Below are positions 4,164 to 63,785 of a stretch of 64,000 bases of DNA, in pieces. The notes under the pieces were generated by a model. The model ran no database searches, was not told the DNA's origin, and worked only from the letters and a program-made list of their open reading frames with translations. The position numbers and the translations under genes are program-made. The stretch comes from a virus, in the IMG/VR virus record IMGVR_UViG_3300027779_002770, positions 1 through 64,000 of that record; one strand, 5' to 3'. Position 1 is the first letter of the stretch; each line of letters begins with the position of its first letter.

Positions 4164-4200
4164 AAAAAAGCCTGGATTAATCATCTAGGCTTTTTTCTTT
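4164..4200 (+). terminator. rho-independent terminator
   Basis: A-run + GCCTGGAT-TAATC-ATCTAGGC + T-run after the sheath stop. Confidence 0.85.
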
Positions 4201-8528: not shown

Positions 8529-11050
8529 TGGCATTAAAAGACTTTGACATATCAAAAATTAAAAGTTGGAAATATCCAACTACGTCGCTGCCACAGACAT
8601 TTCAAGCTAACGGTGGCATAGTTACTGGTGCTAGAAATAAGATAGAAGAACAATTTATCGAAGCAGATAAAATAAATTCAAAGTCTGGCGCAACAAAATC
8701 AGATGACTACATAGGAAAAATAGGAACGCCTCAATCATACCAAGTTCAGAATAGAGCAGGAACAGGTATTATAACTGGGCTGCAAGGAATAATATCAGAT
8801 GATTTAGATGAGTTAAAGAGTAAAAGTTTAATCATAAAGACATATGATGAAATGATAATAAATGAAGATGGAATATTTACATCATTTAATTATAGAACAG
8901 AAAATCCAACACACGGTTTTAGACACATACCAATTATGTTAAAAGATCTTGGAATAGGTTCACTTGACGCACAACCAGAAAGATTTGCCCCACCACAAAT
9001 AGGACAACATTCATCACTAACACGTGGCGGAATCTTTACAGACGCTGTTACAAAAGATCACGTAAATATTTTATACGGAACAGATCAACACAGAGGCGTG
9101 ATGGGGAAATTTTTAGCAGATCAACTTCTTCTTCAGACTGAGGCGATATCAAAAGGAAATTCTTTTGGTATACCCTCACCATTTGGCATCTTTAATGTTG
9201 CTGAATTTGGATCAAACTTAGTTCCTGGTGCAAGAGTTTATAGACATGGCTTAGTTCCTAACCCATTTGGCAAACCGGCAAATTATAAAGATAACTATCC
9301 AAAGATTGGTGAAGCTTTCTCACTGGGCGGCGATGAACTAAATATTACGGCCGGTGCTTTAGCAGGCGCAGATTTAAATATCGATAATAAATTATCAATA
9401 CTTTATGATTATTTTCTTTTATCAGATACAAAAGCAGGCAGTGGAGGTGGATGGTTTGCAAGGAATATCTCAGACCCTCTTAGCAATAGTTTAACATCAT
9501 TATTTACAGATCCTTATCCAATAATACCTTCACAAAATGTAGTTGGTTCACCCTCATTAAAAGAAGGTATGAATCAAGCATACTTCTTAGATAACAAAGA
9601 AAATTATGAGGGATATACTGAGCAAGGAGATTATCAACTTCCTGTGGACGGCGGCGGTTTATTATCACAATTAACAACAGGTGAAAGTGCTGCAAAATAT
9701 TCATTTTTCTCCAAATCAAAACAAACAGTATTTAATCTACAACAGCCGGCTGCAAAAAAAGGCGAGTCAGCATTCGCAAATCTTAAATTCTTTGGCGATG
9801 GTGAGGCCCGCCCTAAAATAGGTGATGATAAGTCATTAAAAGATATACCTCTGTCAGTAGGCGGAATAGCTCCAGAACTGGGCCTACAAATAAATCCTGA
9901 AACTGGCAATAAACTAGCAACGGCAAACAATGATGCCTTATTAAACTATAGTCAAAGAGCTGGTTTGAATTATTCTACACTTGCATATAATGCACTTGGT
10001 GCTGATGATACAAGTAATGTTATTGATGCTGGCGGCGCGGCTTCAGTGCGATATGAAGAGGCGTTAAGAAGTCCAAGTGAAATTAATCAGACATTAGCAA
10101 CAAAGTTCGGTGGCCTCGGAAAAGCTAGAACAGACGCACTTATAGCAGAGAGCGGACTCAACGGAGATAAAATGATCACCGGGCATACCGGTGTTAGAGA
10201 CCATTTTAAAGAAAAAGTTTACAACATTGGAAGACAAGGAATCACATCTGTAAACCCTGTTGCAGATACTAAAAAGATATTATATGGTGCAATTCATAAA
10301 GGCGGATCGAGTAATGAGAGTTATAAAACAGATTTAGTTGATAAAGTCAATATGATACCTTACGGACATAATGCTGGCGAAGATTCTTTTGATGCGCATA
10401 GTAAGGCTGAGGCGCTTGACTTTGTGCCACTAGTCTTTTATGATGTTTATAATAAAAAGTCAATAGCATTCAGAGCAATATTAGATGATATCACAGATAC
10501 AGTAACACCTGATTGGGACGAAACAGGCTACATTGGAAGACCAATAAAATCAGCAACATATAAGGGAGTTTCTAGAAAGATTGGATTTACTTTTGAAATT
10601 TTCCCAAAGACAAAACAAGAATTTCCTGTATTGTTAGAAAAGGTAAACTATTTAGTTGGGCAGTGTTATCCTAATTTAGATTCAAATTTAAGACAAACAG
10701 GACCATTGATAAGATTAACGCTTGGTGATATAATGCATAAGCAATTGGGCTATATTACAGAATGTACTGTTACATTTCCAAAAGCTAGCCCATGGGAAAT
10801 AGATCCGGGATTAAGATTTACAAAACACATTACAGTTTCAATAGGCTTTACACATGTTGGAGGATACATTCCAATGGCAACAGGAAAACATTATGGTCTC
10901 CCTTGGTTAACAGGTAATACATTGAAGTGGACAAAAGCAGGTAATGCAAATTATGATAACTATCCTAATCGCACATCATCAGAAAATACACCACATGGCG
11001 CGAAAAACGATTATAGAGAACTCTTTCAAGATCTTGGGCAAGCAGACTAA
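8528..11050 (+). CDS. baseplate / tail-tube initiator-like structural protein
   Basis: C-terminal FRA..ITD...PDW...YIGR...YKG..R.IGF.F tube-like domain after tape measure. Confidence 0.7.
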   Translation: MALKDFDISKIKSWKYPTTSLPQTFQANGGIVTGARNKIEEQFIEADKINSKSGATKSDDYIGKIGTPQSYQVQNRAGTGIITGLQGIISDDLDELKSKSLIIKTYDEMIINEDGIFTSFNYRTENPTHGFRHIPIMLKDLGIGSLDAQPERFAPPQIGQHSSLTRGGIFTDAVTKDHVNILYGTDQHRGVMGKFLADQLLLQTEAISKGNSFGIPSPFGIFNVAEFGSNLVPGARVYRHGLVPNPFGKPANYKDNYPKIGEAFSLGGDELNITAGALAGADLNIDNKLSILYDYFLLSDTKAGSGGGWFARNISDPLSNSLTSLFTDPYPIIPSQNVVGSPSLKEGMNQAYFLDNKENYEGYTEQGDYQLPVDGGGLLSQLTTGESAAKYSFFSKSKQTVFNLQQPAAKKGESAFANLKFFGDGEARPKIGDDKSLKDIPLSVGGIAPELGLQINPETGNKLATANNDALLNYSQRAGLNYSTLAYNALGADDTSNVIDAGGAASVRYEEALRSPSEINQTLATKFGGLGKARTDALIAESGLNGDKMITGHTGVRDHFKEKVYNIGRQGITSVNPVADTKKILYGAIHKGGSSNESYKTDLVDKVNMIPYGHNAGEDSFDAHSKAEALDFVPLVFYDVYNKKSIAFRAILDDITDTVTPDWDETGYIGRPIKSATYKGVSRKIGFTFEIFPKTKQEFPVLLEKVNYLVGQCYPNLDSNLRQTGPLIRLTLGDIMHKQLGYITECTVTFPKASPWEIDPGLRFTKHITVSIGFTHVGGYIPMATGKHYGLPWLTGNTLKWTKAGNANYDNYPNRTSSENTPHGAKNDYRELFQDLGQAD

Positions 11051-11355
11051 TGTTCAATAGATACAGACACACAGGCGTAAAAGTAGATACTAAAACAGGT
11101 ATAAGATATCAGAAGCCAACATTATATCCTGACATCCCTGAAAGTGATTCAGATAGCTATCATATTGTTGTTGTAGGTGAACGATTAGACCTATTGGCAT
11201 ATAAATATTATAATGATAGTGGCTTATGGTGGGTAATATCCAGAGCTAACAATCTTGATCCAAGCATAACAACAGCTGAGGTTGGAACAGAATTAAGAAT
11301 ACCTAGTGATATAGGATCAATATTGTCAAGGCTACAAGCCATAAACTCAGGATAG
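11050..11355 (+). CDS. LysM / tail-X-like baseplate wedge protein
   Basis: GERLDLLAYKYYNDSGLWWVISRAN...LRIP. Confidence 0.88.
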   Translation: MFNRYRHTGVKVDTKTGIRYQKPTLYPDIPESDSDSYHIVVVGERLDLLAYKYYNDSGLWWVISRANNLDPSITTAEVGTELRIPSDIGSILSRLQAINSG

Positions 11356-60503: not shown

Positions 60504-60757
60504 AGTATGTGTTAGTGGATAATCATGACAATATCGTCCACACAGTTAGCTTACCTACTGAATATACTCAAGAAGAAGCACGATTATATTTTTTAAATTT
60601 AAAAAAAATAGATGACAAGTCCTTTGATGAGTTGTGGAAAGTTCATTCTTCAGAAGAATGGAAAAATATTCAACATGCTCACCAAAGACCTCCATCATCA
60701 TCTCCAAACAGGGATTGGTGGAAAGAAGAAGAGCCATGGTTAGATTTAGAAAAATGA
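60500..60757 (+). CDS. hypothetical protein
   Basis: GAGGAGG SD, ATGA overlaps. Confidence 0.6.
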   Translation: MKYVLVDNHDNIVHTVSLPTEYTQEEARLYFLNLKKIDDKSFDELWKVHSSEEWKNIQHAHQRPPSSSPNRDWWKEEEPWLDLEK

Positions 60758-61644
60758 TGAAAACATTTATAAGAAAACTCATATTTTGGTTTTGTATTTG
60801 TACAACATTTGTAGATGCTCAAACCTACACAGTAGGTGATATTGTAGATAATTTTGGTGCAGAGGCATGTGTTAACGGAGAAGGTTACTGGGATTACGAT
60901 ACAGATGGTTTAAACAAAATTGTATGGTTAAACTTATTCACATCATGGTGACCAAGTTGTCAAGCGGAGGCTCCGTTGTCAGAATTTATTCACCAATCAT
61001 ATCAAGACTTACCAGTAACAGTAATAGCCGCCGGAAGTGATTGGTCAACTTATAGTTGTGAGGGATGGGCAAATGCATTTGGAATAACGTATCCGATATT
61101 GGATGATGATGTTGGTACTATCTATCCCTTGTTTGGAACTGGATACATACCACACAATATTGTAATCGATGGAAGCGGTGTAGTTTTATATTCCCAATCA
61201 GGTTTTAATCAAGATGCCATTCTTGCTGCAATACAAGAGGGATTATCTTATCTTGAAGTGGATACTGATAGTGATGGTCTATTAGATGAGTACGATAATT
61301 GTCCAGAAGATTACAACCCGAACCAAGATGATATTGATAATGATGGAGATGGAGATGCTTGTGATCAATGTAATAACTTAATATTTACTGGTGGTAATAT
61401 TGATGGTAACGAAAGTATAGATATAATAGATGTACTAATGTTAGTAGATGTTATTTTAGGTGAGAATGAATATATTTGTTCATTCGAGGCGGGTGATATA
61501 ACACAAGACGGATTTTTAAATGTTATGGATGTTATAGGTTTAATTCAAATAATAATGGGTAGTACTGAATCTCAAGCGATGATATGGATAGAAAAGAGCT
61601 TCGAATACATCCCAATGAACACAATCACTATTGATACACTTTGA
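60754..61644 (+). CDS. secreted selenocysteine-containing TlpA/redoxin (UxxC) fused to TSP3 Ca-binding repeats and a dockerin-like domain
   Basis: in-frame TGA 60949-60951 gives FTSW-U-PSCQAEAP; cis-Pro loop YIPHN; DxDxDG repeats with DNCP..YNPNQ; GNIDG..IDIID / GDITQDG..NVMD dockerin pair; signal peptide. Confidence 0.85.
60957..60982 (+). promoter_or_regulatory. bacterial SECIS-like hairpin
   Basis: GCGGA-GGC-TCCGT core stem, extendable; G-starting loop 17 nt after the UGA. Confidence 0.65.
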
Positions 61645-61836: not shown

Positions 61837-62493
61837 ATGTTTAACAATTTAATGAAAAAAATAAAGAATAACAGAGGTAATTCACTTGCTGAATTCGCTG
61901 TTGTTACTGCAATGATGGCTACGATGGCTACTACTGCCGCCCCAAAATTTGGTGCTGTTGGTGATTCTGCTAAATCTAAAACATCAATTGCTAATCTAGA
62001 TAAAATCAAGTCTGCAGCTAATAACTTTTATAACGCTGCTGTGTCTGAAGAAGGTCGTGGAAGATTTCCAGGACAAACTAAGTATGATGTAAAAGTTGGT
62101 GGATTTGATTTACCTGCTGAGACTACTACGGATATGGCATTGGAATTGTATTTAGAAACTATTCTAAATTCTTATGAAGGATATGAAGCTGACTTAACTG
62201 ATTTCGTATATGTATTCTCAACTTCAATAACTGATGAAGATGCTCTACAAGGTGATTGGATGAGTGTTGATAATGATGGTGCACACCAGATAGATGCTGG
62301 ATTTGATGAAGATGGTGCTTTAGATTTCAAAGAAAACTTTGGTAACTCAGGTATCTCATCTCCGTTTCAGGATGGTGCTTACATCTATCTTGTTATACCA
62401 GGAAGTGGTAGTGGTTCAGACGCTCAAGCTCCTTGTATGATTATAGCAGATGCTGAGAATCCTGCTGAAATGTACAAAGTATTAACACCTTAA
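61837..62493 (+). CDS. type IV pilin-like protein (major pilin candidate)
   Basis: class III signal KNNRG/NSLAEFAVV...AAPKF with Glu+5. Confidence 0.8.
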   Translation: MFNNLMKKIKNNRGNSLAEFAVVTAMMATMATTAAPKFGAVGDSAKSKTSIANLDKIKSAANNFYNAAVSEEGRGRFPGQTKYDVKVGGFDLPAETTTDMALELYLETILNSYEGYEADLTDFVYVFSTSITDEDALQGDWMSVDNDGAHQIDAGFDEDGALDFKENFGNSGISSPFQDGAYIYLVIPGSGSGSDAQAPCMIIADAENPAEMYKVLTP

Positions 62494-62508
62494 TTTTGTG
62501 AAAGGAGA

Positions 62509-62940
62509 ATGACAATGAGAAATAACAAAGGATTTACCCTTATTGAATTAATAATGGTTACAATCATATTAGGTATTCTTGCTGCTGTCGCTATCCCTCG
62601 GTACATGACAACAGTTGCTAAAGCCGAATCGGCTGCAGAAAATGCAGTAATAGGTTCTATATTGGCTGGTTTAGAAGTCTTTGCTACAGAACAATTGATG
62701 GATAATGGTCGAAGATCATGGCCTGATAATCCATTTGACGGTTTGGACACAAAGCCAAATGGTTACACTACAGATGCAACTGATGCTAATGTTGACGGGG
62801 AGTGGACATTTAATACCACTTCACTAAAAATTACACATCAACGTCTTGATAATTCACGTGTTGGCTGGGTTTATGCTAAAGGCACACAAACAGGAGATGC
62901 TGCTAACGTGGGTACTCTCGGTGCTAGAGCAACTTTGTAG
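62509..62940 (+). CDS. type IV pilin / pseudopilin
   Basis: NKG/FTLIELIMVTIILGILAAVAIPRY. Confidence 0.93.
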   Translation: MTMRNNKGFTLIELIMVTIILGILAAVAIPRYMTTVAKAESAAENAVIGSILAGLEVFATEQLMDNGRRSWPDNPFDGLDTKPNGYTTDATDANVDGEWTFNTTSLKITHQRLDNSRVGWVYAKGTQTGDAANVGTLGARATL

Positions 62941-62952
62941 AGGAGACTACTT

Positions 62953-63390
62953 ATGAATAACTCTGCTGGATTCACTTTAGCGGAATTAGTCGTAACTATC
63001 GTATTGGTGGGGATACTTGCAGCAGCAGCTATCCCCACTTTTAATAATGTGATGGTATCAACTCAACTCCAAATAAACAAATCAAATATGGAAAGTATAA
63101 AGAATGCCTTTATGCGGTATTATTTTGTAACTCAAAATGATCCTCCACCAATACCAGAAAACCATTTGCTAGATTCAGAATACAAAGATTTAGTTTTACC
63201 TGACGGTAGAACACCCGATAATTTATTTAATGGTAAAGCTGGTTTACCTTATAATAGCAATGGAGACCCTTATAGTTATTACCTAGAGAACGACACAAAT
63301 TCCACAGGATTTGTAACACGGACAATAATAATAAAAGATATGAATACAGATAGCCCGTCATACGAGGAATATGTAATCGGAGGGATTTAA
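62953..63390 (+). CDS. type IV pilin / pseudopilin
   Basis: SAG/FTLAELVVTIVLVGILAAAAIP. Confidence 0.92.
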   Translation: MNNSAGFTLAELVVTIVLVGILAAAAIPTFNNVMVSTQLQINKSNMESIKNAFMRYYFVTQNDPPPIPENHLLDSEYKDLVLPDGRTPDNLFNGKAGLPYNSNGDPYSYYLENDTNSTGFVTRTIIIKDMNTDSPSYEEYVIGGI

Positions 63391-63785
63391 TGAACAGAGG
63401 ATATACGCTGATCGAAATGGTCGTAGTTATTCTCATAATTGGTATTATGAGTGCAGTAGCAGTACCGAGATACCAAAGAATAATTGAATTAAAAGAATTA
63501 GAAGCTGAAACAGAATTTGTACATCAGATGTGGAAAGAATTAGAATTATATGCTGAAGAACGATTTGTAGCAACAGGCACAGAGAGCTGGCCGGTAAATC
63601 CACTTTCTGTTTTAGGTCGCACAAGAGGTGTCATCGTTACTATGGACTTGGGAATACCCGATGAAGATAATGAATGGCAATTTGATGGAACTGACTTATT
63701 TCATAGGAGAAGGAACAATGAGACTTGGTATTTCAATTACACCCCTAGTAATTTTCATTTGTCTGAACTTCCAGTTAAGTTTTAG
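63390..63785 (+). CDS. type IV pilin / pseudopilin
   Basis: NRG/YTLIEMVVVILIIGIMSAVAVPRY; WP.NP and EW.F shared with 62509. Confidence 0.92.
   Translation: MNRGYTLIEMVVVILIIGIMSAVAVPRYQRIIELKELEAETEFVHQMWKELELYAEERFVATGTESWPVNPLSVLGRTRGVIVTMDLGIPDEDNEWQFDGTDLFHRRRNNETWYFNYTPSNFHLSELPVKF

Follow-up and report, generated by a model that had tools for sequence, protein, structure and literature searches.

Poxviruses such as molluscum contagiosum virus and fowlpox virus encode selenoprotein glutathione peroxidases that need the selenocysteine (Sec) machinery of the host, and phages carry Cys-type thioredoxins and glutaredoxins (e.g. T4 NrdC/NrdH-like), which are cytoplasmic and serve ribonucleotide reductase (RNR). 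Here we describe a gene in a 64,000-nucleotide stretch of viral DNA (the window; positions 1 to 64,000 of IMG/VR virus record IMGVR_UViG_3300027779_002770), which, judged from its sequence and those of its relatives, is in all probability a selenoprotein gene that a phage carries in functional form. Its product is very likely an exported thiol-disulfide oxidoreductase of the ResA/TlpA/CcmG type, derived from Marinimicrobia, in which a host-decoded Sec is the attacking residue. Like the poxvirus glutathione peroxidases, it would be a virus-encoded selenoprotein relying on the Sec machinery of the host; those enzymes, however, belong to another family and are encoded by eukaryotic viruses with a selenocysteine insertion sequence (SECIS) in the 3' untranslated region, whereas here a bacterial-type SECIS lies inside a phage coding region. 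Like the T4 NrdC/NrdH-like genes, it is a phage-borne redox gene of the thioredoxin fold, but its product is predicted to be exported, to use Sec and to belong to the TlpA/ResA branch.

The protein shares with ResA (Bacillus), CcmG/DsbE (E. coli) and TlpA the fold, the aligned W-C-x-x-C site, the downstream Glu, the cis-Pro loop and export. It differs from them in having Sec in place of the first Cys, extra calcium-binding modules, no membrane anchor and no link to cytochrome c maturation genes. The family itself was listed in the marine selenoproteome of the Global Ocean Sampling (GOS) as "Prx-like 1" (pfam00578, UxxC), with a fused "Unknown_3" domain (Zhang & Gladyshev 2008, PLoS Genet, PMC2398784). 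Dataset S1 of that study contains reads JCVI_READ_1351145, _1018099 and _1052410, which run ...FTSWUPSCQ(A/V)EAP...GYIPHN...DNCP...CDxC...; the first of these reads is also among the sequences aligned for the fused domain in Fig. S1D (PMC2398784). Compared by eye, the reads belong to the family of the window gene: U stands at the column of its TGA, and the C-terminal part is shared. "Unknown_3" is identified here as a thrombospondin type-3 (TSP3) region followed by a dockerin-like region. The GOS reads were anonymous and assumed to be bacterial, and phages were never mentioned (PMC2398784), whereas the gene described here lies on phage contigs; the phage proteins are also shorter than the bacterial ones, and the window copy lacks the type IX secretion tail.

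A survey of marine trace-element genes found no or very few viral sequences among the selenoprotein families of the GOS (PMC9402790), and a tRNA-SeC gene has been claimed in Bacillus phages (PMC6145125). In the searchable literature we found no bacterial virus for which a selenoprotein gene had been reported, the other papers on viral selenoproteins being about eukaryotic viruses. The initial annotation had stressed the rarity of phage selenoproteins. Carriage by a phage does appear to be new, as do the persistence of the gene among a group of phages and the fact that the window copy has lost its secretion tail, but the enzyme family had already been published as a marine selenoprotein, and the recoding mechanism is known.

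The open reading frame (ORF) list split the gene into 60634..60951 and 60976..61644. The initial annotation joined these parts, and both indeed lie in one frame with a single TGA between them. Reading this TGA as U gives 296 residues with U66 at the active site of a redoxin (FTSW-U-PSCQAEAP; with its surroundings, NLFTSW-U-PSCQAEAPLSEF). The ATG start and the stop codon of the preceding ORF share bases (ATGA at 60754-60757). The features of the gene are as follows.

60754..61644, + strand: selenoredoxin gene, complete; 296 codons plus a TGA stop at 61642-61644; homologues share the start position.
60754..60819, + strand: signal peptide, residues 1-22 (MMKTFIRKLIFWFCICTTFVDA, then QTY), read from the sequence and alignments.
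60820..61251, + strand: ResA/TlpA/CcmG-like redoxin domain, residues 23-166, from Pfam, Protein Data Bank (PDB) matches, AlphaFold2 and Foldseek.
60949..60951, + strand: predicted selenocysteine codon, in-frame TGA, residue 66.
60957..60982, + strand: SECIS-like hairpin, from folding and comparison of copies.
61255..61374, + strand: TSP3-like calcium-binding repeat, residues 168-207, DxDxDG...DNCP...CDxC, from a PDB match and relatives.
61390..61599, + strand: dockerin-like pair of calcium-loop/helix repeats, residues 213-282, from relatives and AlphaFold2 helices.
61600..61641, + strand: short C-terminal tail (...FEYIPMNTITIDTL), standing where most relatives have a type IX secretion C-terminal domain.

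The protein is a TlpA/ResA/CcmG-like redoxin with a thioredoxin fold, a CxxC-type site and a cis-Pro loop. Pfam matches to AhpC-TSA (PF00578, 36.9 bits, cut-off 26) and Redoxin (PF08534, 33.8 bits, cut-off 26.6) covered residues 48-153 and thus spanned the TGA. Sequence matches in the PDB were to extracytoplasmic thiol-disulfide oxidoreductases, ResA and CcmG/DsbE among them. When HMMER aligned the protein to ResA (PDB 4nmu), the TGA stood at the position of the first Cys in WCKPC, and the Glu and the cis-Pro loop that follow lined up as well; in the window protein these features are W65-U66-P-S-C69, Glu72 and GYIP133HN. An AlphaFold2 model built on 40 relatives had a predicted local distance difference test (pLDDT) score of >90 at residues 25-165 and placed U66 directly before the helix of residues 67-82. 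The top Foldseek matches of this model were ResA, DsbE and CcmG, with template modelling scores of 0.82-0.87 relative to the target for ResA/DsbE chains. The signal peptide was assigned by eye from the sequence and the alignments, and the N-terminus of the mature protein, QTYxVGD, is kept in relatives.

The hairpin with a G-starting loop that the initial annotation had placed 17 nt downstream of the TGA was recovered, and it is conserved and covarying. Its upper stem consists of 6 bp (AGCGGA/UCCGUU, 60963-60968 and 60972-60977) closed by the loop GGC (60969-60971), and a short lower stem pairs 60957-60959 with 60980-60982. The hairpin lies 11 nt downstream of the UGA, and the first G of the loop lies 17 nt after it. 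In bacterial SECIS elements the apical loop is found 16-37 nt from the UGA (PMC10778597) and contains a conserved G (PMC2398784); the spacing observed here lies within this range, and the loop holds a G. In an ungapped alignment of 40 copies, the core GGAGGCUCC, which forms the top of the stem with the loop GGC, was invariant in all 40. Pair 26-36 was CG in 32 copies, UA in seven and UG in one, and was broken in none, while pair 25-37 was GC in 14, UA in 13, AU in two, GU in one and unpaired in 10. The covariation exceeded that of 500 of 500 shuffles, and sliding the partners lowered pairing from 87.5% to 30-45%.

Codon choice was also conserved in the hairpin. The Glu-Ala-Pro codons GAG-GCT-CCG were kept in 16, 16 and 15 of the 17 viral copies and in 52, 52 and 44 of the 52 bacterial copies; the phage's own usage of these codons within their codon families is 28% for GAG, 34% for GCT and 13% for CCG. 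The comparison of copies therefore suggests that the hairpin is a SECIS-like element selected down to synonymous sites.

Further copies of the gene were collected by a scan of GTDB genomes, which gave 52 loci, and by scans of IMG/VR, which gave 16 further viral contigs of 8-131 kb. Nearly all of the GTDB loci came from metagenome-assembled genomes (MAGs) of Marinimicrobia (Neomarinimicrobiota/Fidelibacterota), with a few from CSSED10-310 and one from a Cloacimonadaceae genome. At the DNA level, the codon at the active-site column was TGA in every one of the 17 viral copies; with paralogues counted, 52 bacterial copies had it too. The single exception was the bacterial orthologue L050, which has TGC and lacks the hairpin motif, a Cys/TGA interchange set against 69 copies with TGA. 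Neither Trp nor termination was seen at this column at the DNA level. A sequencing error at the TGA is excluded because the same codon recurs in dozens of independent assemblies.

The phage copies are 50-68% identical, and their ratio of nonsynonymous to synonymous substitutions (dN/dS) is 0.09-0.37 both 5' and 3' of the TGA; therefore, both halves appear to be translated as parts of a selected protein, and this two-sided selection makes it very unlikely that the gene is a pseudogene. A group of large marine phages thus seems to keep a UGA/SECIS-recoded gene under selection. That the TGA is instead a real stop, leaving either a broken remnant or two products (a 65-residue peptide and a 222-residue protein from TTG 60976), would agree with the way gene callers split the gene, with the many N-terminally truncated entries in catalogues and with the viral copy L068, which has no canonical hairpin. 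We consider it extremely unlikely, however, since the TGA and its flanks are kept across the 17 diverged phage copies under the constraint described above, the hairpin covaries, and two separate products would divide the thioredoxin fold and leave it without its nucleophile.

Entries of this family in public protein catalogues are either truncated after the TGA or have W at the Sec column. The full-length entries with W would fit a TGA that is read as Trp, Cys or Gly through a variant code or near-cognate read-through. Many of the W entries (P0005-P0039), however, run beyond the C-terminal ...LLK of the family with unconserved tails that start in W, and we infer from these read-through tails, at the protein level, that they are translation-table-4 gene calls on short contigs. 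In the phage, moreover, TGA is a normal stop: it terminates 22 of 83 long + strand ORFs, including the selenoredoxin gene itself, so that the code is unchanged. Decoding as a standard amino acid is further opposed by the TGA at the DNA level in the viral and bacterial copies checked; a covarying hairpin at SECIS spacing and the presence of SelB and tRNA-Sec in the bacterial carriers are what insertion of Sec predicts. We give this possibility hardly any credence. Standard gene calling hides genes of this kind.

Several other in-frame TGA sites were seen in bacterial loci. The Marinimicrobia locus L046 has TGG TGA TGA CCC TGC at about 4169-4177, with two adjacent TGA codons followed by the usual SECIS core; the copy may be damaged or may have a U-U site. 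More redoxin genes with an in-frame TGA were found at L043 6546, L050 974, L015 5804 and L021 3268, comprising FADW-U-LPC and FFASW-U-PVC types and two short paralogues with the GGAGGCUCC hairpin. These genes suggest that Marinimicrobia hold a rich UxxC selenoproteome.

The assignment of the gene to a phage, as made in the initial annotation, was borne out. The source record is an 82,659-bp linear virus contig that is ~41% complete, and the window is part of it; CheckV puts the full genome at about 200 kb. Genes for a tail sheath, a tail tube, a baseplate hub, a DnaE-type polymerase, RNR, a ligase and a polynucleotide kinase lie on the same strand. Some features might suggest that the contig is chimeric or not a phage and that the gene is an ordinary chromosomal selenoprotein gene of Marinimicrobia: the record is a linear fragment, and the gene has neighbours of cellular type, namely KdsA, pilins and a TonB receptor with 66% identity to a MAG protein. 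This explanation is nevertheless highly unlikely. The structural and replication genes named above share the strand and the contig with the selenoredoxin gene, and the 16 other IMG/VR contigs carry it beside different phage genes that are shared with the record. The many genes in common include those for RNR (77% identity), a nuclease (86%), an AAA protein and pilins. The viral copies also lack the neighbours and the ~120-residue extra domain of the bacterial copies that are described below. No tail sheath gene was found in the first two viral relatives, both of which are fragments (19% and 24% complete). The neighbourhood of the redoxin gene differs among the viral contigs; in one example, it directly follows an RNR gene whose product is 77% identical to that of the window. 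The shared genes and the varied neighbourhoods mark the redoxin as long-standing in the gene pool of this phage group.

A maximum-likelihood tree of 70 copies placed the 17 viral sequences and the Marinimicrobia sequences L004-L007 in one clade (SH-like approximate likelihood ratio test, 99), which is nested inside the Marinimicrobia radiation. The viral/genome label changed twice on the tree, compared with about 15 times when labels were shuffled. The phage gene was thus apparently acquired from Marinimicrobia (SAR406/Fidelibacterota). Along its whole length, the TonB-dependent receptor of the phage (54332-57136; CarboxypepD_reg, Plug and barrel) shares 66% and 62% identity with proteins of the MAGs that hold L006 and L007, whose redoxins nest in the phage clade. 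This identity lends independent support to a Marinimicrobia bacterium as the most likely host, and the selenoredoxin gene could help to assign phages to the abundant but uncultured SAR406/Marinimicrobia as their hosts. The tRNA-Ala of the phage was considered as a further clue to the host and set aside as uninformative, being only 81-84% identical to Marinimicrobia tRNAs.

Among nine Marinimicrobia genomes with the gene, SelB exceeded the cut-off in seven and tRNA-Sec exceeded the gathering score in eight. Of the selABCD set proposed for the host, the search in these genomes covered SelB and tRNA-Sec. In the 82.7-kb phage record, ARAGORN found tRNA-Ala and tRNA-Gly only, and tRNA-Sec, SelB and SelD were not found in this ~41% of the genome. 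A scan of the whole record gave no further plausible gene with an in-frame TGA. The phage would rely on the Sec machinery of its host.

The Marinimicrobia orthologues (e.g. L004-L007 and L039) match the phage gene in the UxxC site and in the SECIS core, with a protein identity of 41-51%. The bacterial proteins, of 487-527 residues, contain an extra ~120-residue domain as well as a type IX secretion tail, whereas most viral copies, of 356-385 residues, retain the secretion tail and lack the extra domain. The genomic context differs too. A DUF6029 gene lies directly 5' of the selenoredoxin gene in 36 of the 52 bacterial loci (e.g. L039 1918-3903 and L006 1966-3909), and a gene for a Cys-type TlpA-like redoxin is often found nearby; the phage copies have neither neighbour. 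The AlphaFold model of DUF6029 is large and almost all-beta, with the C-terminus ...KLSYSAxF, and resembles 22-strand outer-membrane barrels. This arrangement, perhaps a redox module of the Marinimicrobia envelope, suggests that the selenoredoxin of the host may form the outer part of a thiol-redox system there.

The evidence for the C-terminal modules named in the initial annotation differs in strength. The TSP3-like part matched thrombospondin-2 and COMP chains in the PDB at 1.9e-14 to 2.2e-11, thrombospondin-2 giving the lower value, but its Pfam score of 18 bits was under the cut-off of 25; TSP_3 (PF02412) was matched in 25 of 28 relatives. With its DxDxDGxxDxxD/DNCP repeat, we assign this part to thrombospondin type 3 on sequence grounds. 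Its pLDDT was low in the AlphaFold2 model, which was made without calcium. For the dockerin-like part, the window protein shows two D-x-D/N-G-x-x-D/N-x-x-D loop-helix repeats and Dockerin matches at E <= 0.01 were obtained in 18 of 28 relatives (best, 5.6e-7), but the window copy itself gave only a weak match to Dockerin_1 (PF00404; 14.7 bits, cut-off 22.9). The model contains helices at 224-234, 243-247, 257-268 and 272-282 in this part, with a pLDDT of about 85-90. The type IX secretion tail (Por_Secre_tail, PF18962) was matched in 22 of 28 relatives and not in the window protein, which instead shares a short ...YIPMxTI... ending with the viral loci L057/L067 and with L070. A secreted or surface location had been proposed; the signal peptide supports export past the inner membrane, but any assignment beyond that is unsafe for a copy that is missing the type IX secretion domain.

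By analogy with the established bacterial mechanism, a ribosome arriving at the UGA (60949-60951) would meet the hairpin, which would recruit host SelB with Sec-tRNA(Sec), and translation would resume as far as the true stop at 61642. The phage would supply the signals in the mRNA alone, and tRNA-Sec, SelA, SelB, SelD and selenium would come from the infected cell, so that expression of a phage gene can depend on the Sec machinery of the host and on the availability of selenium. After export through the Sec translocon and cleavage of the signal peptide, the enzyme would be active in the cell envelope; the window copy probably stays periplasmic because it has no type IX secretion tail. A strongly nucleophilic capacity for disulfide reduction or exchange may thus be added during infection, beside the envelope-type genes that lie near the selenoredoxin gene in the phage (TonB receptor, KdsA and pilins). 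The claim is directly testable.

Several points weigh against a host-decoded, exported selenoredoxin. The presence of Sec in the product is predicted from sequence, and the host is assigned from gene phylogeny only. The missing secretion tail of the window copy could mean altered or reduced function. The record is ~41% complete, and the unassembled 59% of the genome could contain the decoding factors assigned above to the host. The folding energy of the hairpin is not significant alone (z = -1.64; 11 of 200 shuffles fold equally well), and a search of 60850-61100 against the Rfam SECIS families gave no match, with only unrelated families at chance level. In the viral copy L068 (6033-6092), the TGA is kept and TCT GAA GCA CCT replaces xCG GAG GCT CCG; some copies, like this one, may be in decay or may rely on a different structure. 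Another small hairpin, CUGA-AGCACC-UCAG, can be drawn in L068.

A more far-reaching and rather doubtful possibility is that the selenoredoxin, instead of merely boosting host metabolism, is a phage-specific envelope effector, part of a mobile module of TonB receptor, pilin and lipopolysaccharide genes that remodels the Marinimicrobia surface. The highly reactive Sec would then break or reshuffle the disulfides of host envelope proteins, for example in a block to superinfection or in release, and the fitness and host range of the phage would depend on the selenium supply and Sec machinery of the host.

A type IV pilin-like cassette adjoins the selenoredoxin gene in several related phages (window 61837-63785; L060 2687-4994; L069 8971-10086; L058 9381-9608). 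It lies 3' of the selenoredoxin gene in the window and directly 5' of it in L060/L061. Formation of disulfides in the adjacent pilins by the redoxin was considered and rejected, the pilins encoded at 62509-62940 and 62953-63390 being without Cys. Outside the window, the ORFs at L073 3665-5749 and 9912-11144 (record positions 67665-69749 and 73912-75144) matched PHROG families labelled cobalamin or porphyrin biosynthesis. One of these families is an AAA ATPase, and the ORF at 9912-11144 is common to many related viral contigs.

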